From contig JALDZX010000032.1 of assembly GCA_022813865.1 (NCBI GenBank), positions 186,001 through 250,000 of the forward strand: a DNA stretch of 64,000 bases. The letters run 5' to 3'. Of the stretch, positions 19,297 through 62,025 are shown piece after piece. How positions within the stretch are numbered: position 1 is the first letter of the stretch; every line of letters starts with the position of its first letter. This DNA is from Xylographa opegraphella. Taxonomy: Eukaryota. Position numbers and translations under genes: made by a program. The notes under the pieces were generated by a model. The model did not search any database. It was not told the origin of the DNA and saw only the letters and a list, made by a program, of their open reading frames with translations.

Positions 19297-22200
19297 ATGG
19301 GTGTCGACGCTCTATCACCGGTCGCGCCGGCGCGGATACGGTGTCTCTTGGTCCCATCTGGGACGATCACGCGATCGAGATTCCTGACCTTCGTGGAGCG
19401 ACTTCAACAAGAGGCTACAGTGCGTTTGGGAGATGTCAGTCCCACCACGAAGTCTCCACGGAGTACGCTATCCCTATGCTTGCTGAAGTACCGATGAGCC
19501 ATACTGACAATAGCTACACATAGACATGTTTTCTCCGCTTGCGTTTCCGACTGGCTTGGCTATATACGACATGACCATTGTGAACCCCTCGTCTTCGCAT
19601 CTGGCTTTGGCACCATTTGAGCTTTACAGAGAGCCATTGGTGGTAATAGGAATTGCAGATGGTCCCAATATTCTACATCGGGAAGATACAGCTGCACCAG
19701 CTCCTGTCAGTGTAAACGGTAATGGGACAATGCAAGGCCGTGCTGGCAATTCTATTGAAACAATCCGGCGGCTGAGGGATCATTATCCTCGGGCCCTCGT
19801 ACATCAGCTCTTCATCTTTGATTGTGACGTTCGAATATCAAGTCCGCCTCTCGATGTGATTTTTGTGCCTTCCCTGGAGCATTCGAAGACTACCACCATG
19901 AAAACAGTCATGTGTGACTTGACAGCTCTCTTGCTAGTGGAGATGGCGTCTTACGCAAAGTCTTTACAAGCTCTACCAACCATTGACACTCCGAAGTCTC
20001 TCCATGATCAGCGATCCTCAGGTGACTACATTTATAATTCAAATTTACAACTTGATAAAATTCCTCGTCCAGATTCTCGAATATCCCCTACGCCAACATC
20101 TCGCTCATCGTCTCCTGCTCCAGATGCTCGATACTCATTAACTTCGCAAAACATTAGTGCTGCTAGTGTTGATGGAGATGGGAGGAGCACTTCGCGACCA
20201 CCATCAAATGGATATAAGACCCCCCCCGTCGCATTCGATCATGACAACGGTGTACCAGAAGCGCAGCAAACGACGTTAGATAAGGAGAGGAGGCGTCTCA
20301 GTCGAGACAGAGTCGCCATTCAGGGATTTGGATCTGGAAGTGTTGGAGAGCGAGCTCGGAACAAAGCTAATGGTCGGAAAGGGGTTGTACTAGGGTCTTT
20401 GTACCTTCTTGCAGGCCGATGGCCCGATGCTTTAAAAGAACTCGTCGAGAGCGCAACTGTTGCAAGGAGTCTTAGCGATCACGTTTGGCATGCAAAAGCT
20501 CTGGACTACATCCTAGTTTGTTTGCTGGTCTGTGCCTGGGCAGGTATGGATTTTGAGGTACGTTGAGCTCAGATGAATGCAGTCGCCTGATCAATGCAGT
20601 CGAGTTAATAAACTAATATTCGACAGATTCCACAAATATGTTATCCCCTGGGCGACAAAACAAGTCCTGGTCTTAGCAAGACGGGCAAGCACAACTCTCT
20701 GAGTAGCATACCTGATCTCAATCCACTCAAGAGTCCCAACGCCGCCAATCGTCATGTATCGCTTCAAAACCTATGCAACTTGTTACCAGATCTGGTAAAC
20801 AATATCTTACATCTATACGTCCGTGCTGCAAACTTTACTGCAGACGTACTACCGCAAATATCATACTCTGAATCCGCCATCCGCTTCGCTAAGTTGTTAA
20901 CAATTATAGAAAATGCAAATGGCTCCCTCAATGACCAAGGTCTTCAGCTTGTCGTACTCAACGTCGACACTAATTCGAACTCGTCTACAATCCCGTCACA
21001 TCTTGCATCCTTCCCGACCAAAGCCGAAATCGCAGCGGTTTTGTTGAAGGCTCTCCCGAATTCAGCTATGGAAACCTCGTTGAGTGCCAACGACCGTGTC
21101 AACATATTAGCCGGGATCGCTTCAGTTCTTGCCAAACTAGGTTATCATCGCAAGAAAGCCTTCATAATGAGGGAGCTTGTGATTGTGCTTCTTCCTGCTC
21201 TCATTCAGAGTCGCAAAGATAGTGCAGCAGAGCTTGGGGTACACCCTGCTGCAAGCTTATCATCGTACGACCTAACAGGAATTGGCAATGGACTCGAGGA
21301 AGCATTTGGATCATTGCATGGCTTCGCGTTCGGGATACAGAGCTTTCTAAGTTTGATGTGTAAGGTATACGGGGCGGTCCTTTCAGTACAAGCTGAAATG
21401 CTGATGGGCACGAATGCTTTGACGAATTCCGATCATAGAGACCAGATTGACACCAGTAGCATGAAAGTCGATTATCTGCAGGCAGTTGTTGATTGCATTG
21501 TAGAAGATGCAAGAACTCGTGCTTTCGGGGATTCGAGTCTTAAGGTGGATGTTTTACGATTATGTATCAACGTCTGCGAGGCGCTTCCTGATCTACCTGG
21601 TGTGCTTCGCTTTTCCGGTGATATTTTGAAGACGGCGGCAAGTGGAATTGCAGCCGGGCCAGAAAGTCGAGACGGATTGCCCGCATTGCCAATGGAGGAC
21701 CAAGCTCGCCTACTGGGCAACATCTCAAGGACGGTAAGCGCGGCACGAAAACTCGACATCAGCAATGCTGACGCGGAGTACTGGGACGATTTCCTCGTTC
21801 GAGATATTGAGACCACTAAAGCTTCATCTCTAAAGTCTCCCAGGCCTCGGAAAATAAGGCAACTAGATATTGGTTCAACCCCTGGTCCCGAAGCAAAGCA
21901 GAATCCGTTCATTTACAATCCCTTTGGGAACAAGTCAGATTCTGCGGCAATCGAGCCCTTGCTTGTGGTTGGAGAAGAGGCAACCTTCTCCGTTGTCTGT
22001 CAGAACCTTTTTGACTTCGATCTGGAAATCGAGTGGATGAGGCTGGATACTATCGAGGGTTCCATAGACACTCTAGCAAAGAATCGTATGATTGGACCGT
22101 ACAGAACTCAATCAATTCAACTTTTAGGAACTCCTAAAACTTCCGGAGTACTTAAAATTGCAGGTTGTCTAGTTAAAGTGAAAGGTTGTCGTGAGAGGCG

Positions 22201-23989
22201 ATTCCCGATATTCAGGAGTCCTTGGAAAAGTACTCGCGAAACAAAGCTCAAAAGTCTAGGTCTCTCTCCGACAGTCATGATTTCTGAACGCCCTAGTTCT
22301 TCTGTATCTGAAAGCATGCGTTCCCGCCGAGAAATCACTAACATAGGACCGGTTCCAACGACACTGAATATCGAAGTTGTTGGGCCACAACCCAACGTGA
22401 TGGTTAAGAAAACTTCTCTGTTGCAATCGGCTATTATGCTCCTGGATGGGGAAACCAAAAGGTTCACGATGACATTACGGAACACCTCTAACATGACACC
22501 CACGAATATACTCTCATTGTCCTTCTCAGACTCAGCATCCAGCATTTTGCAATCAGCACTCACAAACAAAGACCTCTCTCCTCCAGAATTATACGAGATT
22601 GAATTGGCATCCTTTAAGAGAGAGACGATCAAGTGGTGTCACGAGGATCACGGAATAGAAACGCATATAGCGCCCAACGAAGACACCCAACTTGAAATAG
22701 AGGTAGTGGGAAAACCGGGGCTCACGTACGGATCGGTTCATATTGACTATGGGTATCTGGGTGTCGACAGGACAGAAGTCAAAGACGAAGTTTTCACTCG
22801 GCAGATCTCATTTCCATTTACCATTACTGTCAACTCTAGCATAGACCTTGTTCGCAACGATTTCCTTCCGTTCACTGGGGATTTTGCATGGTTAAATCAA
22901 AAGAAAAGGCTCAGATCAAACGAGAGCGCTCCCACCACGCCTCCTGACAGACGCTCCCGGGCTGCCTCTCGACTGACCTCGAGACCGGAGTATCGTTTCC
23001 AATCGCTACTCGAACGTCTTGGTCTTGGAACCCAAGGTTCAGATCACTTCCTGCTTCTCTTGGACTTCCACAACTCTTGGCCCAAGCCCTTGTCTATTTC
23101 GGTCCAGGTTCGCGAGAAGACTACGCCACAAGAGCCTAGTCTCTTTGACCTCTGGAAGCGCGCATATACCGCTCACGAAGTGCTGCAACCCGGTCAAACA
23201 TCACGATTGGTTCTACTTCTACCCCGTATTTTCCTCCCAAATCCCTACGCTCCCATACCGTCTCTTAATTCTACCATAAAGAGACAATTCATCCACTCTT
23301 CCAGTACTGCTCTCGACAACGAGACCGAACGCACGGCTCGTGAAGCCTTTTGGCTCCGTGAAGAGATCCTGAAGCTCATGCGAGCCTCCTGGACAGAGGA
23401 TGCTACTCGACGCACCGGAAAGATTGAGTTGCGAAACCTTCGTCTTACTACCCGTATGGTTGATGCCATCAAGCTGGAAGAGGTGGGAATTGACATGGCT
23501 ATCACATCGGAGTCTACTCCGGAGGCCGACCCTGAGAACACTAGTTCCGTTACACAGCTTGCACGCTCTGTCTTTCGTGTCCCAGTGGATGCCTTCTTCA
23601 CCCTCCGTGCAACAATCACAAACCGTCTCCAAACTCCGATCTACCCTCTCCTCCGCCTTCAACCTTCGCTTAGAAATCAACCACACAACGTTGCCCTTGA
23701 TCTAGGGAGGAAGTTTGCTTTCAATGGGGTAATGCAGCAAGCATTGCCATTGTTACGGCCTGGACAAAGCACAGAGGTGCAGCTAGGCGTGGTGTTTCTT
23801 GTCAGCGGGGAATTTGAGATTCGGGCCTCGGTAGAGGAGGTCAGGATATGGAAGGACCACGCTACCAAGTCAGAGAACGGTGGTGGTGACCCTTCGGATT
23901 TGGGGATGGCGCGGCTGTTGGAAAGAACGGAGCGGAGAGCTTGGCAGTCGCGAGAGCCCTGCGTCGTGCATGCGGTAGGCGATGCTTGA
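19297..23989 (+). CDS. TRS120: TRAPPII complex subunit Trs120 (TRAPPC9), 3 exons
   Basis: DALSPVAPARIRCLLVPSG...VRLGDVSP|MFSPLAFPTG...PFELYREPLVVIGIADG...GRKGVVLGSLYLLAGRWPDAL...DHVWHAKAL...EYWDDFLVR...NPFIYNPF. Confidence 0.95.
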
Positions 23990-50178: not shown

Positions 50179-52488
50179 TCAAGGCACGAAGTATGCGGCA
50201 ATGGAAATAATAATCCATACCTCGATTAACAGGGCGCCTTGTATCCTTTGGAGCTTGTCAATAAGGTCCATAAGCTATTGGGGAGAGGAAAGATATACCA
50301 TGTAGACTGTCCGTCCTGCATGATGTAGTTAACGATTAGTATAGAAGCAAACAGTGCTAGGACTTCGAATGCGCTGAAGACCAAGGTCATCTCGTCAATA
50401 TCCATACCCCAAGCGATTATAAGTACCAACGGAATCACCATCAACGAAGTCTGTATGCATTTCCCTGTGGTCAAGGCAAGACTGAGATCCACCTTGTCCT
50501 TGTAAGCCGTCACGATAGTTGTCGGATCGTTGCTCAATAGGGGAAGGATGACCAAGCCAACAAAGGTCTCGGACAGGCCAGCCTCGCTAAGGAGTCCATC
50601 GATGGAGTCCGTCGCAAACTGAGTGTTGAATGCAATGAAGACGGTTGACACAATGATTGTGGCTATTGCAACCCATATGCTTAATCGTGGAATTTCCTCG
50701 TCGTCGATGACATGGCTCCCGCTGATGCCAGTCGCCGCCGATTTCGCCCCAATTGCTGCGATCGCCCTGAGAGGTTTCACTCGATCCATCCGTCTTTTCT
50801 GTGTAGGTTGACTTCGTTTGTGTGGGCGAATCGGGTTGGTATATAGCTGAAAAAGCAGCCAGAGGCCGTAAGACAATAGCAGTACCACCCCTGTCCCGCG
50901 GGATTGAACCACAATATCTCTCCGGGAGGTAGTGATCAAAAAGTGGGAAACCGTGGGGACGATCAGACTCGTGGCTGCAAGTAAAAGTAGGGAACCCACG
51001 AGCTTGGCGATGCTGCTATCGAATCGTTGCTCGGCCCACTTGATACCGCCAAGGAGAAAGCCAAGGCCGGTCATTAGGAGAAGGTTGGAGAGAATGCCAC
51101 CGATCAAGGAGGTTTGTAGCACAGTGATCTGTCTAGTTTTCAGGAGAAAGATCGACGTGATCAGTTGAACAGCATTACTGTCTGAATCTCAAAACCGGTT
51201 CATAAAAGTCTGTAGAGTTTCGCATACCTGAAGGTCATGCTTATCAGCCCCTCCAGTAGTTCACCAACACGCAATGAGAAATCGTCGATGGCAAAAGCAA
51301 GGATCATAGCACTGGGTACGATAGCAAGGAAATTTACAGTGAAGATAGCAATTGGATTGACATGGGTATAGTTGAGTACGAAACCAACGGGAATGAGTAA
51401 GATTAAGATATGAAACGATGAATTGAAGAGGAGGATCCTGGCTTGGTCGATGAGGGTGAAGTGATCAACCTCTCCAGCAGGAGTTACATCCTTCGTCGTC
51501 CCATCTGGTCTGAAAGCGATGAACCTTCGCTTTCTTGGAGAGATCTCATCAACCTCCTCGGATTCAGGGCCACCGCCGCCTCTCAGGCGCAGGACAAGGA
51601 AAATTGTGTCCCCCTAAATAAAGGTATTAGCAATTACATGGGGACGGTCGCCGTGGTACGTCTCACTGGTTTGATCTTATAGGCATTCAAAGCTCGTTCT
51701 TGCGTAAAGTTAGCAATTTGATGATGTGGAAATGCTTTTAACGAAGATACCGTCCTCCAATTGCCTGCCTTCCCAGATGAGGCGCATCTGGTCAGGCGGT
51801 ATCCCCTCTTTGTCCTGGATCCGAGTTTTCAGATTGTGAATAGTAAGCTTTCGCGCGCCGTGGATTGGGATAACCTTGCCCGTCAAGGTACGTATACGTA
51901 GTTCTATCTCGTTGTTATCGCTGATGAACGGCCGGTGCTCATGAAGCGACACTCGATCTTCATTCCCACTGGCAGACGCATCGGCATTAGCAGAATCCAC
52001 AACCTCTTCGACCCTTGTCTTTAGACTTTTGTCTCTTCTGCGTACTATTGCCCCTTTCATGTCATAGTCCCAAGGCATCGTGTCACCACGCCTCGGAACA
52101 AGATGTGCCAATTTATCTCGAACTTTCAATGGGGTCGTGGAAGCATGCTTCAGACCAGTAGTTATAGTTTCTACGCCAGCATAATTCGCGGCTGTTTCGT
52201 TTTCTGTGACAGGCTCAGAGACAAGAGCCTCTTCTGCATCCAGTGACTCCTGGGTGACAGGCACGACTGTAGAAGCCGGATCTGCAGAAGCCAACGCGGC
52301 GGCGTCGATTCCACCTGATTCGGCATCGTTATCGTTAGGCGCTTTTTTCCTCCGCAGAGCAAATGGGTTGAAGGCACTTTGGTTGTTGGGACCTCTCCAG
52401 GCGGCGGAGTATGCATTTCTCCGAATTGAGTCTGCGGTCTATGTCATTGAGAGGCACAAGTCAATCGGTGTCATACATACATACACAT
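50179..52488 (-). CDS. Divergent Ca2+/H+ exchanger (CAX/Vcx1 family) with an in-frame ubiquitin domain in its N-terminal tail; first exon uncertain
   Basis: Exon 52438-51751, micro-exon 51698-51667, exon from 51613 reading [19 protein letters not shown]...LLIPVGFVL...[13 protein letters not shown]...GLISMTFS|NAVQL...[15 protein letters not shown]...[14 protein letters not shown]...KDKVDL...DGQSTW|IQGALL...YFVP*. Confidence 0.85.
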
Positions 52489-52766
52489 GTCTGAATCAGC
52501 AAAACATCTACAACATACGGAGCACCACGTTCTTGGAACCTGGTTGCGGGGCAGGGAAGCGCCGAGGTCGGACTCGGCAGAGGATATATAATACATACAT
52601 ATAATACATACAATAATACAATACAGGGTTAGGATACCATATAGCGCGAAGAGAGCAAGCGAGGTATCCCAAACAACGATTATCAGGCTTCGTGACCGAG
52701 TGTGTCGAACTCCGTGACGAGGACCGCAGTCCAGAAGATAGATCAGGGCGACTGCCATCGCTCGCT

Positions 52767-54170
52767 ATGTCCGTCCCTCGGTTACCTTTTCTGTATCCAC
52801 ATCTTTTCCGCAGCCTTCGCATCGCGGAACCATATACTACCCTTCGAACACCGGCTCCAAGAGTTGCTGCAGCTTCCAACCGCCAACTCCACAAGACGGG
52901 CAGAAAGCGGCAAGAGACGTACGCCCAGCGATATGGCCCTGCCACCGAACCTCCTCCTCCTCCGCCGCACATTTCGCAGAAGCCGGAGGATAGAAAACTG
53001 CCAGTGGCAGCGCAAAAACAGCCAAGGTTTCAGCAAGGGAAGGAAAGTGATGCAAAAGACAACAGCCGCACCTCGGAGGTGGAAGGTCGTGTATCTCCAA
53101 AATTGAAGAACGAGAGCGCCGATACCGACATTTCCCAAGGCCCTGATAAGGCGGAGGAGATAGAGAAGGTCGCGCGACTGACCGCCCGGGACGCTGAGGA
53201 GTCTCATCCAAAAGAAGCTATCAGAGGGCCCCGCCAGGAAGCAACCACTACGCCCCTTGAGACCGTATTACACATAGAAGCACCTACTTCTAACAAGTCA
53301 GATGAACACAAAATCCATATGCATGCACCACCATATGTTCACCATTTCGACACCTACACGCTGGTCAATGACCTGGGAAAGGGGGGGTTCACCCAGGACC
53401 AAAGCATTACAATCATGAAAGCTGTAAGAAGTCTCTTAGCAATTAACCTGGATGTTGCCAGAGAAGAGCTGGTATCAAAATCCGACGTCGAGAACGTATG
53501 TCTAATCCGAGATCGGACCGGGCGACTTGGGATACTGCTAACCTTACTTTTGTAGGAGACCTACCTTTTTCGCGCAGCATGCTCCGAACTGCGCACGGAA
53601 ATTCAGAACCTTCGCAAAATATCAAGTGAAAAGATGCGCATCGACCGTGCTCATTTGCAGCATGAAGTTGATATCCTCAATCAGAAGCTCACGCAGGATT
53701 CTATGACCTTGAAGGATGATCTGCGCGGGATGTTCAATGATCGAAAAATGGCCGTGCGAATGGAGCAACGGTCAATGGACAGCGCGATACAGGAACTGAA
53801 TTACAAAATTACGGTGGCTTTGAACAGCGATAGCCGAGGCGAGGTCGAAGGCCTCAGATGGGTATTGACGAGGAGAGCTGCCATGGCAATTGTAGGGATG
53901 GCTTGTAAGTTTCTCTTCGTTTGTCAATCGAACCTTCCTGACGACCTGGCAGTTCTGATCCTTGGATCACTACGCTATTCCTCATACATGATGCACATGC
54001 AGGATGTAGAACGGAAACGCATGGCAGCAACGGCCCCGACATACACGGATAGCGGCGGAGGCAATTATACAACGCCCTCCAGGAGTACAGCGACCCAAAC
54101 TGGAGACTCGGACGTAATGGTTGCAAGTATTGATTCCGGGACGAATCCTAGTTATGTGTCTCTAGGATAG
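52767..54170 (+). CDS. Mitochondrial DUF1640 / CCDC90-MCUR1-like coiled-coil protein, 3 exons
   Basis: MSVPRLPFLYP leader; PPYVHHFDTYTLV..L..GGFT..QSITIMKAVR...SKSDVEN|ETYLFRAACSELRTEI...EVEGLRWVLTRR followed by a TM segment. Confidence 0.85.
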
Positions 54171-55463: not shown

Positions 55464-58400
55464 TTAGGCTCCGAAGGTGAGCTTCAACGCTATGCTGGGC
55501 TCTTCTTTGCCACGCCCATCGCGACGAGCATCACTCTTGCTAGCGCCACCTTCTTTGATGATCTGCTCCATGAACGCGCGCTGCTCAAGATTCATCTTCT
55601 CTACTATAGACCTGAAGGCGCCCTGATCAATGCTTGCCATGGACATAAGTCGGGAGGCTGTATCATCATAAGAGTCTTTGCCTTCTCTCGAGGCTACATG
55701 TAGGACTAAGGGAACAACAAGAGTGTACAGAGTAGCGGCTTGTTCGTCTTGCAGCGTCGATGCGTAGGAGATGATTGTTGCCAGTATGAGACCCCTTGAG
55801 TTTTCGGGGTCTTGTTGGGCGTCGTCAATGAGGAATTGCAATAACCGTGGGAGCAGATAAGCAGCAATGGCTTGGCCCACTTCTCCTTTCGGCTCGGTCA
55901 GCAGTAGGGATCTTATGCAATTGGCAGCCACTTTTCCTAGTCCACGATCTTGTAGACAGTCGAGTAAGTCGTCGATGAGCTTCAACACTAATGGTTCATT
56001 AGGCAAGATGCCTTCGGAGCCATTGGTGAGAAGAATGACCGAAGCCATAAGAGTGTTCTTAGCACAAAGCAAACTCGCTTCTGATTCGCGTCTTTGAGCG
56101 TTGGCAAGAATGGAACGCAGCTTTTGGAGGCAACTTCTGAGCTGCTCGGTGATACTTGGGTTTTCCTCGACGTCTTCGGTGATAGTCTGAACAAACCGCC
56201 GGAAAATCGGTAAAACTTTTGGTACTACGGATGCCTGGCATACGCCCGTACCGAGAATAGTGGTAAAGATATGGATGATGCAGGCGCGCAGATCAGTACG
56301 GATGACAGAAGGAAAGATACCTGAGACGTCAACGAGGGCTTCGAGCGACAAGTCGAGCAATGCCACTCCTTCGGCAGGGATCTGATGTCGAATCGTTGTT
56401 GGTTTCTCTCCAAGATTGGGAAGAACACTGGCGATTACTAAAACTATTATTCTTGTAAGCTCGAATAGCTGTTCGATATCGTCGGATAAGTGTTCGTCTC
56501 CCTCGGTGCCCTCCTTGACCGAAGGATGAGTCAGACATAGATTGCGAGTAATCTCTACAATAGCTCCCTGCACAGCAGAGCCTTCTGTTAAGGCTAGACG
56601 ATCGAATAGCTCCATAGTCTCTGAGAAGACAACATCTTGGTAGACAGCATGACCAGAGACGGAGGGACGAAGAATCCGTTTCAACGCCAGCAGAATCTCC
56701 AAGGTCTGATCATTTGTGTTCTGAGTATCCATGTCTGGACGCTTGACTAAGGCCTCGAAAGATATGCCGTACAACATGAAAAAGAATGCCACTGGCTCGT
56801 TGCGATAGCTGATGTCGTCCCTATTGGACGCTGCACCACTACTTACCGAGTTGCCTGTCTTACCGTCGAGGGCGTCAAACACGACATCGCCATCTTGGTC
56901 TATTAAGCTTGCAATAGCTTCCACAAGTTTAAGCCAAGAGTCCTGGTAAAACTGTAGCTATGTCAGTAGATGGTTCGGGTGAGGACAAATAATGTGCTAC
57001 CTTGAGAAGAGTTTGCCGGTTGAACGCGGCATATATCGTGTCAAGGCTGTCTCGGCCGTTAATTCCCATGCTACTGGAGATATCCGGCTCGAAACGCAGA
57101 CGAGCAAATTCTTGTAATGAAGATAGCCACAAAGGCGTTAGAGTGGCCGTATGTGATTTGACAACTTCCACCAAATAACCCTGTTCTGTGCTCGCAACCT
57201 GTAACTCAGCCCATGCTGATAACACAGACATCTTGACCATCGTTTTCGCATTGGAGCTGAGGCCTTTAAGATCTCCAATAGCTGGACTTCCCGTATCAAC
57301 TAATTCAATCAGTAGCTGCATCACCTCACGATCATCAGAAGGCATACCGGTGAAGCTGTTCAAAGTAGACACTAATAGCTTGAGAATTCTACCCATACGA
57401 TCAACGTCTTTGACTAGTCCGGCAGAAATGAAGGTTGCGCAGACGCTGATTGCCACTGAAGCAAGCTCAGGAGACGAGTCTGCTCCAAATGCTGGCGTAA
57501 GCGCAGAGCTGATCTGCGCTTGGTATTGCTCCAGCAAAAGTGCCTCCGAGAAATCCGGATCTGGAGTCTTCCCGAATATCTGATACGAAGGTTAGATATT
57601 AAGTCGATGTTCGCAACATGTGATCTGACACTTACTAGCAAAACCTGGTCTATCAGTTTGAGCCCCCGAACTCGAAGCTCTATGACTGAGGCTGTGGATG
57701 CGAGAAAAGCTATCCGGATAAGATCGGAAACTTTCTGTTGCATGGCAAGCCCGGCCAGGGAGCCAGGATGTGCTAGCATGTCTCGTGCAACCGTGCTAAG
57801 AATATCACTGAGACACTCCAGCGTAAATGCACGTACTTGCCATCTTAGCAGCTCCTGGCCGACAGAATTGTTATCCCCATCGTCATCCTTGCCATCTCCA
57901 AGTGCGAATCCGGCAACTTCCTCATCTTGGACATCTGGAGCAGCGGAAGGCAGTGTTTGTTCGGGACCTGGCGTAACTCCATTTGATTTTGTCACTGTTT
58001 TTGTCAACAGATTCTGGCAGCGATTGATCCACTGCGTTGTCTGGGTCAAAGTTGTCTGCTGAAGCCAGGCTTCCACAATGCTTCGAATTCCACCTTGCTC
58101 GTACGGGGTATCTAAAGACTTCCAGATCTGATCCTCAAAACCTTCAACAGCTACATTCATCGTCTGATCAGCGTTTCGCCGCATAAGATTATAAAGACCA
58201 TCTGTAGCAATATCGCGAATGTCATTTCCGGGAAGGGCCAGACCTTCCCGCAACTGCTGTACGTATCTTGATAGTTCAACATAGGAAGGAGCATATAGAT
58301 ATATGTGCTCCCAGCAGCGCAGCGCTTGACCCCGAACCAATGTTTCTTCATCAGCATCAAATTGTCGTACGAGGGTTAGGATCAAGTCACGAGCCTTGCC

Positions 58401-61400
58401 CATGTCCTGCAGATCAGGCCCTAAAACATTAATCAGAGACGCTATGCAGTGGGCGATGGCACCAGTGGTTGGCAATTCTAGTTCTGCATTAGATGTGCCG
58501 ACGGCGTCCGCCTCTTCACAGTGGCTGTCAGATATCCACAGCTGCGCCAGCAAACCAAGGGTACTCGGAATATATCCGGAGAATGTAAGACCAGCAGATT
58601 CCGCCACTTCAGAAAGCGCCTCAATAGCCCAGAAGTGCACCGTAGGATGTGGATCGCTACACAAAGACATCAAAACACCATGGATTTGCCGTAGATGAAA
58701 CCCTGCAGCCATACCGCCAACATTTGAATGTATGGATCCCAGTGCCATAGCACATCCAGCACGAGCATCGGGTTCTCGATTTGACACAATGGTTTCAATC
58801 AAATTGTTGACAACGGCGGTGGTAAATGCATTACCAGAGCCATTGCACATGCGTCCCAATGCTTCACAGCCAACGTTACGAACATATTTGTCGGGGTCTA
58901 CTACGAGGCTCTACTTGGCAGTCAGTCCCATTACCCAAGTATGTCAATAGCGGTACGTAACCCTTAAAAGTTCGTCAAAATACTTTTCCACAGGAGGTGA
59001 TTTTAAATCACCGGGAATGGCTAGAGTTTCACTCAATGTGACTTTCAAAGCTCCCAGAAGTGCCAAAGCAATATTGACCGTGACTGCTGCCTTCCTTCCC
59101 GGGTCCCTTTGAAGAATCTTTGCTCCAAGAAAAGTAGATAGTTGTTCGAGTATGCTCTCTTGAATTTTCGGGCTTTGTAGCGGGAAAGCCGCTGCAAACA
59201 CCGAAATCGCCGAATTGACGACTTCTGTGGCAGGTGGATCCGGCAAATCCTCTGCGGTGTTGAAGTCCTGTGTGTCTATATAAACGGAATCGTGTTCCAA
59301 GGCACCGCATGTGGGAGATAGCAACTAGTAATGTCAGCGCATTCTGGAATGTACGTAGACTCTTAGCGTACTAGGCGTTCTAAGATGTATTCGACATCAC
59401 TCCTATCATACCAAGATGACTGAACACCATCTGATTGCTCGCCTGCCAGTGGCTTGACGTGCAATCCTTTCATCAGACCTGATACTCCGTATCCAGAGTT
59501 GTCGGCCACATTCCAAATGCTATCGAAATTACTCGCCGAATTTGCTATGGACGTTCCCAGAGAGCCTTGTACATATCCTTCCGGTTCGGCAAAGCAAGAT
59601 ATGGCAAAGGCGACGATTCCTGACTGGGAGAGAGTCTCTCGGCTAGCGTGCGGACTTCTGATCGCAAGCCTGGTCAAGCATTGTAGTACCCTTCTTCTGA
59701 CCATTTGTACGAGGTCTGGTAGTTGAAGCGAAGGAAGCATACGGGACGACATTTCACTTTCGGCTCTGGTGGTTGGGATGTGGTCAAGAAACTCGATTGT
59801 GTTCTGCAGCATGGTCGCAATACGCTTGGACACGTCGGTGGTCAACAAGCGTCCATTGAACTCGAGAAAAGCTAGAATTGATCCCAAAGCACATTCCCGA
59901 ACGTGTACTAGATAGCTGATCTCAGCCATCTGTCGCTGCCCAGCATTCTCTTTGGTCAGAGCTTTCGGAAGAGAGTTCCTCCACAGTAGTAAAAGCTGAG
60001 TCAAGTGAATCTTTACGAAGTTCGGTCCCAGTGACATGAGACCCCCTATCAGAATCCACGCTACTTGGACTTGCGTGCCCGAAATTCGAAGTTCAGTGTT
60101 GACACTCGACTTGAGCAACTCAGTTGCTTGCTGTAAGACTCGGGAACTAATCTCCAACGAACTATACAAGGGCTGTAGACTTGATATGCTTATAACCGCT
60201 GCAAGACCGTTCGCATACCCGACACATTTTCTAGCCGAGAGGCGCCCTGTATTTAGCAATTCCAGTTCCCTGTTAAGAGAATCCATGGAGGTAGAGGCGC
60301 ATTGGATAAGTTGTGATGGACAGGCCAGTGTGAAGAGACGAAGACAGTAAGAAGCATGTATTTGCACTGTATAGCTTGGATGCTGCAGAACTTGCAAGAG
60401 AGCATCTCGACAGCTATCGGCTAGTGGACTGAATGCTGATCCGAGAGCTCTGATCAAGGAAGCTAAAACATCAAGAACACCTGTCAGAGTATTCTTCGTT
60501 GGCTCACTCTTTTCCTTGAGCACCCTAGGATAATTCTTCAGATAATCGTTGATCAGTAGCTTTGCTGCAACAGTCTGAGCTGCTTCACCAAGTATAGATC
60601 GACCCACCACATCGGCCAGCAGCTTGTGTACAAACCGTCTGGTTAAGAGAAGTCGATATCGGTGGTGAGTTATCAAAGGACTGCTTAGGATGTCGACCAA
60701 AAAATGATCTGCTATGATAGCGTAATTCGCTTCTATGACACTAGGGTCTAGAGTCTGGAAAACCCTAGAGTAGCAGCTTATCACAGCAGCTCTGCCTCTA
60801 TTACTGGTCGAAGAGCGTATATATTGAGCCGAAAGTTGCCGTAACATGTCTGGAAGCGTCAGATCTAGCTGTACAGAATTCTTCTTCCAAGTTGGAGACG
60901 CTAATCGTAAGGTGTCCGAGTCGTCTCCATCAGGCGCAGAAAGATTCTGGCCTGGAAGTGGTTTCTTCGCTCTCTTGAACCGTGGTGTCTTGGGTATTTT
61001 CGGTGTCGACGTCAATGGAGTCATCGCCGAATACCCCTTGATCATCAACGCTGCCAGACATGATGCAGAGGCTTGCCGCACAGCAGACACCGAGCTGTCC
61101 CCGGCTTTCCATATCGTGGTCTTCAATGACTCAAAGTCGTTGGTATTGTTGAAGTGATCTGTTACTCGTACGAGTCGTTCGAGACAGACGCAAGCCTTGA
61201 TCTGAACCAAAGCTCCTCGATCGCCTGATGCCGCAGTCCGAGCTTGCTTGAAGATCTCACGGGCTACAGACTCGTCAAGTGACCCCTGAACAGCTTCAAC
61301 CACCCTGCAAAGGGATTGGAATATTGCCGCTCGAAGCGCGACATGGCCTGTTGCAGCTTTCAAGAGCTTGATGATGGCTGTACTAGTAAAACTAGACAGA

Positions 61401-61867
61401 TTGACCGCCCCATCTCCTGCGACTCTATATATCTCCCCCAGACAAAGGACGGCCGCTTGCTTATTCCTGATTTCTTTCTCAATTTTACCTACATTCAAGG
61501 ACTCTCCTAGCTCGGTGATCGTTTCGAAAAGGAGCTTCCGGTCTCCTTTTCCAAAAATATGTCTTAAACAGCGGCCGATAGCATTGCGAACCGGTCTCGT
61601 AGGTGGCGGAGTAGGAAGGTTGATGATCTGCAGTAGTTCTTTCTTCAGTTGGACTTGCTCCTCCTTGAGGACTTCAATCTTCAGCGATTTGATATGCTTC
61701 TCGGAATTTGTCACGAAGTTAAATAAGTACAAGGCCTGCTGCTCGGAGGGTAAGGAGTGAAGCTTCGTGATGTCAAGTTCAACCTCCTGCTTGACATGTT
61801 TGCTGGGTATACTCTTGGCCTCTCCGTTGCCATTTGAGACATGTGAAGACGACGGGAGATGGGACAT
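55464..61867 (-). CDS. LAA1: HEAT-repeat AP-1 accessory protein Laa1/HEATR5, multi-exon
   Basis: ELDITKLHSLPSEQQ, GDRKLLFETI, QVQVAWILIGGLMSLGPNFVK.HL.QLLLLW, ARAGCAMALG, LLEQYQAQISSALTPAF, C-terminal PSIALKLTF. Confidence 0.92.
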
Positions 61868-62025
61868 GAATTACACCTTGACTGTGCTTCGTCGAAATGC
61901 ATTTCACATCATTGTGAACACACGGCGGAACTTGGCTTTGGTTTGCGGAAAGCGCTCGCTTCCTCCACGCCCTAAATAAATTTTGGACCAGCAACTCTCG
62001 AAGCAACAGTCTGCAGAGTCTGCAC

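Follow-up and report, generated by a model that had tools for sequence, protein, structure and literature searches.

Can a ubiquitin unit reside within the gene of a fungal membrane transporter, and if so, would it be cut from its partner? The question is raised by a 64,000-nucleotide (nt) stretch of Xylographa opegraphella DNA (assembly GCA_022813865.1, contig JALDZX010000032.1, positions 186,001 to 250,000; hereafter the window, to whose first letter all coordinates refer), where an initial annotation made from the sequence alone had placed a full ubiquitin domain ending in LRLRGG, in frame, within a CAX-family membrane protein. The analysis described here indicates that this fusion is very likely real and conserved, that its partner belongs to a divergent CAX-like clade that probably does not perform classical Ca2+/H+ exchange, and that a deubiquitinase is predicted, with a probability of roughly 0.5, to cut after the diglycine, parting the N-terminal tail and ubiquitin-type domain from the transporter.

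The fusion gene is located on the minus strand, and the model built from the window bases consists of six exons and 709 codons, with introns 1 to 5 measuring 80, 52, 53, 50 and 53 nt and bounded by GT..AG in all five cases. Its parts are as follows:

52596-52519, minus strand: putative exon 1, 78 nt, 26 codons, ATG at 52596
GTATGT donor at 52518 to CATAG acceptor at 52439, minus strand: putative intron 1, 80 nt
52438-51751, minus strand: exon 2, disordered N-terminal tail with the R..A...AW...NPF motif, then ubiquitin-domain residues 1-52 (51907-51751)
51750-51699, minus strand: intron 2, 52 nt, GT..AG, branch-like GCTAAC
51698-51667, minus strand: micro-exon (exon 3), 32 nt, ubiquitin-domain residues 53-63
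51666-51614, minus strand: intron 3, 53 nt, GT..AG, branch-like GCTAAT
51613-51575, minus strand: first part of exon 4, 39 nt, domain residues 64-76 (model residues 267-279), ending LRLRGG
51574-51228, minus strand: rest of exon 4, two more glycines, an acidic/basic linker of about 35 residues and the first membrane helices
51227-51178, minus strand: intron 4, 50 nt, GT..AG, interrupting the alpha-repeat-1 motif
51177-50299, minus strand: exon 5, most of the CAX membrane domain, including both alpha repeats
50298-50246, minus strand: intron 5, 53 nt, GT..AG
50245-50179, minus strand: exon 6, last membrane helix, TGA stop at 50181-50179

The ubiquitin-type domain spans 76 residues of the model (204-279) and is encoded by 157 + 32 + 39 nt. 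Both introns removed in the initial annotation to obtain it (51699-51750 and 51614-51666, with GCTAAC and GCTAAT) were recovered at exactly those positions, and its domain coordinates and count of 42 identities in 76 were reproduced in a gap-free alignment of the spliced domain to the first unit of a fungal polyubiquitin (P0117). The domain matches the ubiquitin-family profile PF00240 on the exon 2 frame alone (frame residues 181-231; E = 6.1e-13; 48.8 bits, cut-off 25.4), and a phmmer comparison of a ubiquitin unit with the spliced model scored 72.2 bits over residues 205-279. No gap is needed to align the micro-exon residues with ubiquitin 53-63 or with the uninterrupted domains of two relatives, P0002 and P0265. 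When the first domain piece was searched against solved structures, the best 60 of 310 matches were all ubiquitin, polyubiquitin or engineered ubiquitin variants; NEDD8 or another modifier was accordingly rejected as the source, the columns invariant among the fused domains (given below) also all being equal to ubiquitin. The window domain is not a bona fide ubiquitin, a protein that is near-invariant and has all seven lysines, as it carries the changes K6R, K29R, K48R, K63P and H68F.

The LRLRGG motif is encoded at 51592-51575 and further residues follow it, beginning G-G-P-E. The exon that bears it continues for 386 nt without a stop and enters the CAX membrane part, as had been described; it opens a 137-residue frame (51200-51613), and exon 2 belongs to a 242-residue stop-to-stop frame (51710-52438). 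In silico, skipping of the micro-exon brings a stop at model codon 272, retention of intron 2 at codon 269, retention of intron 3 at codon 277 and retention of both at codon 269, such that all alternative splice forms around the micro-exon end within about 20 codons, and the transporter is predicted to be reached by the proposed splicing alone. An internal start yielding the transporter by itself was also considered and rejected: the first methionine after the diglycine (residue 279) is model residue 369, inside a membrane helix, with none between the two. These splice stops and the absence of a methionine imply that the transporter can be translated solely as part of the fusion, barring an unseen alternative first exon.

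Upstream of the domain, exon 2 contributes 177 residues, close to the approximately 175 of the initial estimate, which falls short of the 203 residues that would precede the domain with exon 1 included. A first exon was placed because a TAG (52441-52439) bounds the exon 2 frame and an ATG near its beginning is lacking; this putative exon has weak similarity, judged by eye only, to the N-terminus of a Xylographa pallens protein, and the same protein guided the choice of the intron 5 acceptor, which was picked to make the C-termini match. A TACA/ATA-rich run at 52590-52630, between two divergent genes, overlaps the putative start codon region and renders the position of exon 1 less certain.

A ubiquitin match was identified in 6 of the 179 CAX-type proteins collected, the window model included. 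The five other predicted proteins with the fusion are P0001 (Xylographa pallens hypothetical protein MMC27_003071, the best match to the membrane exon at 81% identity), P0002 and P0003 (60-62% identical to the membrane exon and carrying both PF00240 and PF01699), P0249 (KAH8885002.1, Thozetella sp. PMI_491) and P0265 (KAH9892929.1, Xylariomycetidae sp. FL2044). The last two, both automatically named "ubiquitin-domain-containing protein", come from Sordariomycetes and Xylographa is a Lecanoromycete, so that two classes of Pezizomycotina are represented. The membrane-exon search found 45 longer proteins, and in a search with the membrane part of P0002 among proteins of near length the best 120 of 327 matches had PF00240 and PF01699 precomputed together in P0002 and P0003 alone. 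The N-terminal exon search was dominated by polyubiquitins, with PF01699 in 2 of the 120 matches listed, as was a search of P0002 against a representative library, which contributed P0249 and P0265; 20 of the 150 matches listed in the latter (picked because their best stretch fell in or across the membrane part) were scanned with Pfam together with seven membrane-exon relatives, and 4 of these 27 proteins contained both families. The number of fusions is a lower bound, as more fused members may rank below the matches listed. A search of the ESM Atlas gave no usable match.

The gene models of these relatives bear directly on whether the fusion could be a product of prediction. In P0003 the N-terminus, domain and membrane part lie in one unbroken frame up to the position of the window's intron 5, a frame that also reads through the intron located as the window's intron 4, and the fusion in this protein is thus independent of splice prediction; the P0003 cluster holds three other full-length members with an identical domain and tail arrangement. 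The earlier view that the fusion is not a gene-joining artefact is therefore upheld by five independent predicted fungal proteins, one of them unbroken. The P0001 model, around its own residues 219-245, lacks 41 mid-domain residues and has both flanks and the LRLRGGGG junction; the gap is probably a mis-predicted donor site, and Pfam calls no PF00240 on this protein because the mid-domain residues are absent from the gene model. Read-through of introns at the positions of window introns 4 and 5 was also observed at the C-termini of P0002 and P0273 and in alpha-repeat 1 of P0003, suggesting that the intron positions are conserved and that these models contain spurious residues.

The membrane partner has clear similarity to CAX proteins. 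PF01699 is present in exon 5 as two stretches (E = 1.2e-20), and exon 5 matches the yeast exchanger VCX1 (4k1c) with a phmmer E-value of 9.1e-44; with two Na_Ca_ex repeats and, in the model of a relative (see below), the corresponding fold, the protein is a member of the CAX/CaCA group. Against TIGR00378 (cut-off 211.15), P0002 scored 233.3 bits, P0265 205.3, the window exon 5 alone 174.9 and a canonical relative 390. The two alpha repeats distinguish a degenerate group from the canonical one: in 150 of the 179 proteins the first alpha repeat has G-N-A-V-E and the second G-N-A-A-E-H, whereas the window protein reads S-N-A-V-Q (Q codon 51167-51165) and S-N-D-P-T (50534-50520), and 28 others are degenerate as well, with Q in place of the first glutamate (L in one; three are fragments without the repeat) and a shortened S-N-D-P-type motif without glutamate in repeat 2. 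Pfam scores are 45-87 bits in this clade versus 143-167 in canonical relatives. In the alignment to VCX1, NAVQ lies opposite NAVE and the A-A-E of repeat 2 is unaligned.

In the exchanger YfkE both glutamates are essential, the E72Q and E255Q mutants being without transport (PMC10227063), and the VCX1-type signature is given as G-N-x-x-E with E106 and E302 (PMC10531375). The window protein lacks this strict Ca2+/H+ exchanger signature, with a glutamate in each repeat. Since neither alpha repeat retains its glutamate for binding ions and protons, classical Ca2+/H+ exchange is improbable, and the membrane protein probably does not perform it. The ordinary exchanger partner assumed in the initial annotation is thus not what the repeats indicate (the first has Q, the second a deletion), and arguments borrowed from Ca2+/H+ exchange by CAX1 or Vcx1 are weakened. 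While the window protein shares family and fold with VCX1 (4k1c), AtCAX1 (9vsa/9vsc) and YfkE (4kjr), it differs from all three in the Glu to Gln change of alpha-repeat 1 and the deleted A-A-E of alpha-repeat 2. The sharing of Q and S-N-D-P by a 29-member clade (support 100/100) suggests a conserved variant and not decay.

A related case may be yeast Vnx1, a CAX-family member that reportedly exchanges monovalent cations and not Ca2+; compared by description only, it resembles the window protein in family and long N-terminal tail, and its ion specificity is non-canonical, as that of the window protein may be. Examples of the degenerate clade are P0004 from Acrodontium, P0006 from Didymella, P0202 from Pyrenula, P0213 from Clohesyomyces and P0240 from Trichoglossum, and the named members are mostly from Dothideomycetes and lichen-forming fungi (Pezizomycotina). 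Several members carry the source names calcium/proton or sodium/calcium exchanger; judged from their repeat motifs, this automatic annotation as calcium exchangers is probably wrong. In P0006 (Didymella keratinophila, 861 residues) the CAX domain is followed by some 300 extra residues that are absent in other relatives and may represent a merged gene model.

A tree of the membrane part was constructed from 39 rows, comprising all 29 degenerate-motif proteins and 10 canonical outgroup sequences picked from the 150. The degenerate-motif proteins form one clade (100/100), and all six ubiquitin-bearing proteins fall inside a nine-row clade whose support of 93/82 lies under the tool's star threshold; the remaining three rows of that clade are fragments without an N-terminus. 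Six rows were scored as having the domain and 23 as lacking it, the latter being rows whose membrane part is preceded by 100 residues or more; the other 10 rows went uncounted. On this scoring, a single change of state explains the distribution of the domain on the tree. The sequences thus point to a single insertion event, in which one ubiquitin unit entered the N-terminal, cytosolic tail of a divergent transporter of the CAX type. The fused domains share 31/72 to 52/76 identities with ubiquitin and only 22/72 to 42/76 with one another, and this greater nearness to ubiquitin fits a single capture followed by drift in separate lineages. At 41-68% identity to ubiquitin across the group, the fused domain is, by its sequence, free of the near-total constraint that holds for real ubiquitin; the window and P0002 copies share 42/76 identities, compared with 62% in the membrane part, suggesting that the domain evolves like an ordinary one, at about the pace of the remaining protein.

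The tail into which the unit was inserted has a feature of its own. A basic helix, R..A...AW, followed by NPF or NPY within the first 90 residues (52438-52340, minus strand, in the window) is present in 17 of the 29 degenerate and 104 of the 150 canonical relatives, and since relatives without the domain possess it, this motif predates the ubiquitin insertion. The ubiquitin unit is located between the motif and the first membrane helix. NPF is a ligand of EH domains, and adaptors of the Ede1/Eps15 type combine EH and ubiquitin-binding domains; the motif may be a trafficking or regulatory signal of long-tailed fungal CAX proteins. In plant CAX1-type autoinhibition, the N-terminal region inhibits transport until it is removed or modified.

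An AlphaFold2 model was made from a 60-row alignment for P0002, which is approximately 60% identical to the window protein and stands in for it here. Residues 197-271 of P0002 are modelled with a predicted local distance difference test (pLDDT) value above 90 as a beta-grasp (strand-strand-helix-strand-helix-strand), and pLDDT is below 50 at residues 42-191, before the domain, and at 272-307, a stretch of 36 residues that starts near the diglycine; a short helix is modelled over the N-terminal motif. Foldseek comparison of the modelled domain with ubiquitin chains gave template modelling scores (TM-scores) above 0.9, and that of the membrane part with VCX1, AtCAX1 and YfkE gave 0.77-0.86 (0.83 for VCX1), all target-normalised. 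In this model of a relative, the diglycine tail is located in a disordered, exposed linker.

The tail is also conserved in sequence. It reads L-(R/T)-L-(R/H)-G-G-G in the window protein and 4 of the 5 relatives, with a glycine directly after the diglycine in all five tail-bearing proteins. When the four domains that are complete and bear the tail are compared, 18 of the 76 columns do not vary, every one equal to ubiquitin (G10, T22, I30, G35, I36, P38, R42, L43, I44, G47, L50, L56, Y59, V70, L71, L73, G75 and G76). Four of the six tail positions (L71, L73, G75 and G76) are among them, an enrichment with a hypergeometric probability of 0.025 that is matched by only 3 of 71 six-column spans, in a comparison of four related, non-independent sequences. 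Residues 72-76 of ubiquitin are outside the folded core, and the fold therefore does not account for conservation of the tail. Of the remaining surface, L8, R42, I44 and V70 are retained in the window protein and P0002, and the patch is kept in most members. At positions 48 and 63, the window protein has R and P, P0002 K and P, P0003 R and P, P0265 Q and K, and P0249 Q and R; this failure to retain K48 and K63 across the group argues against an ordinary-ubiquitin role. The conserved glycine was considered as an N-myristoylation site of the released transporter and this candidate was dropped, only 2 of 5 junctions (window and P0002) fitting, by eye, the PROSITE pattern.

These properties are consistent with processing by a deubiquitinase. 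The fusion protein would be made as a single chain and cleaved after the diglycine of LRLRGG in the exposed linker, giving in equal amounts a soluble piece of about 280 residues, with the tail at its start and the ubiquitin-like domain at its C-terminus, and a membrane protein beginning with glycine. It is a plausible prediction, as initially proposed, that an N-extended ubiquitin able to be conjugated would be set free and that the tail is autoinhibitory. In natural ubiquitin precursor fusions, deubiquitinases cut behind G76 (PMC3692480), and the window gene resembles polyubiquitin, ubiquitin-eL40 and ubiquitin-eS31/S27a in having a 76-residue LRLRGG unit in frame upstream of another protein. 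Unlike these precursors, its unit is internal, with some 200 residues before it, shares 55% of its residues with ubiquitin and carries K48R and K63P, has a polytopic membrane protein as its partner and is found only in a small fungal clade. A closer arrangement is that of ubiquitin reference constructs, where an upstream polypeptide, ubiquitin with R48, a junction residue and a downstream protein are joined in that order; cleavage behind the final residue of ubiquitin takes place cotranslationally and yields two products in equimolar amounts (PMC3692480). Those constructs are engineered, with authentic ubiquitin and soluble partners; if cleaved as proposed, the window fusion would be a natural counterpart of that design. 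FUBI-eS30 (FAU) is likewise a linear fusion of a diverged unit with a C-terminal diglycine, and FUBI, 36% identical to ubiquitin, is reported to be cut there by USP36 (PMC8354635), so that divergence at the window's level does not preclude processing. FUBI differs in being an N-terminal unit, joined to a ribosomal protein, in a fusion of holozoans.

Several points weigh against cleavage. P0249 has the domain without an RGG tail and, unless its gene model is wrong, that domain cannot serve as a cleavage module; tails that are otherwise kept have R72 replaced by T in P0265 and R74 by H in P0003; and at 41-68% identity recognition by a deubiquitinase is not assured. In relatives without the ubiquitin domain the N-terminal motif is necessarily tethered to the transporter, and constitutive cleavage would untether it. 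The sub-threshold clade support, the relatedness of the four compared tails, the use of a relative for the structure model and the putative status of exon 1 count against the explanation as a whole. The main alternative is a protein that stays whole, in which a permanent ubiquitin-like sorting or turnover domain in the cytosolic tail, possibly acting with NPF, is read by ubiquitin-binding proteins such as sorting adaptors, Cdc48/proteasome shuttles or an E3, a reading that is somewhat less likely than cleavage. Ubiquitin-like domains are known on membrane proteins such as Herp/Usa1, TMUB1 and Dsc3, and an uncut role would agree with the tailless domain of P0249, with the retained L8/I44/V70 patch and R42 in most members, with the loss of K48 and K63, with the near-equal pace of domain and membrane part (42/76 versus 62% between window and P0002), and with the presence of NPF in unfused relatives, which suggests that the tail acts in cis. 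Ubiquitin-like domains of this kind, however, as a rule have no C-terminal diglycine, whereas L71, L73, G75, G76 and the next glycine are kept here in five of six proteins from two fungal classes and, in the P0002 model, lie in a disordered linker. Moreover, linear fusions of this type are described as being cut after the diglycine for almost any next residue, even with a preceding polypeptide (PMC3692480).

Deubiquitinase cleavage could also be part of a more elaborate arrangement, a two-in-one gene in which regulated cutting would free a conjugatable, lineage-specific modifier with a 200-residue NPF-bearing extension and at the same time uncage the degenerate, non-Ca2+ CAX-like protein as a sensor or a transporter of other specificity, in a fixed 1:1 ratio; this is unlikely in its entirety. 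That the transporter provides only a promoter and a partner for an ordinary source of free ubiquitin is highly improbable: LRLRGG, R72, L8, I44 and V70 are present in the window copy, but so are only 42 of 76 identities, with K6, K29, K48, K63 and H68 changed, about 200 residues would be left on the N-terminus, and the relatives differ more from each other (22-42 identities) than from ubiquitin, a protein otherwise near-invariant. An annotation mirage or decaying gene, in which the micro-exon is unused, the frame is broken and a dead ubiquitin insertion sits in a pseudogene, could be read from the 41 domain residues missing from the GenBank model P0001 and from the lost catalytic glutamates. 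It is nevertheless very unlikely, given five GT..AG introns of 50-80 nt with GCTAAC and GCTAAT beside the micro-exon, a spliced frame open for 709 codons, a membrane part 81% identical to that of Xylographa pallens, Q and S-N-D-P substitutions common to the 29-member clade (100/100), and the unbroken frame of P0003 with three further full-length cluster members that have domain and tail.

The initial annotation named polyubiquitin and ribosomal proteins as the classical ubiquitin fusions, which understates the range: fusions to actin, NiSOD and an integral membrane protein, with ubiquitin at N-terminal, C-terminal or internal positions, are described in algae, where they are said to be easily overlooked by automatic annotation (PMC6332867). 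The window fusion resembles these in being lineage-specific, with a non-ribosomal membrane partner and an internal ubiquitin, and differs in organism and partner from those of Bigelowiella and Guillardia, that account mentioning no CAX partner and not containing the word "transporter" (PMC6332867). The further statement of the initial annotation, that no described ubiquitin-CAX fusion was known to it, agrees with the literature searched (few subscription journals, no InterPro architecture tables), in which no description was found, however the architecture is already in GenBank under automatic names. The fusion is rare, with at least six proteins in two Pezizomycotina classes, and functionally unexplored.

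If cleavage occurs at the diglycine, the gene would provide a natural example of deubiquitinase-dependent maturation of a polytopic membrane protein, and a system for studying how far a ubiquitin unit can diverge yet be processed and what a cell gains by tying a transporter to a ubiquitin-like product 1:1. If the protein is uncut, it would be one of the rare cases in nature where ubiquitin can be tested as a signal attached permanently, in cis, to a membrane protein. Independent of cleavage, the 29-member fungal CAX-like clade without both transport glutamates is unstudied, and the loss of 41 domain residues from P0001, the closest GenBank model, illustrates how gene callers mishandle such fusions.

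The surroundings of the fusion gene are ordinary fungal nuclear genes, encoding CCDC90-like, Laa1/HEATR5-like, phosphodiesterase-family, D123, DEAH helicase, Trs120 and DUF3684 proteins. Three of these genes are located as follows:

52768-54170, plus strand: CCDC90-like gene (PF07798), frames 52617-53555 and 53556-54170, apparent short intron near 53497-53556
55464-61870, minus strand: Laa1/HEATR5-like gene (PF25808, PF20210), split across several frames
19514-23989, plus strand: Trs120/TRAPPC9 gene (PF08626), split across several frames

The CCDC90-like gene is divergent from the fusion gene, with the two ATGs (52768 and 52596) 171 bp apart if exon 1 is placed correctly, suggesting a very short common promoter region. 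The large genes split across frames are those of an intron-bearing fungal nuclear region.

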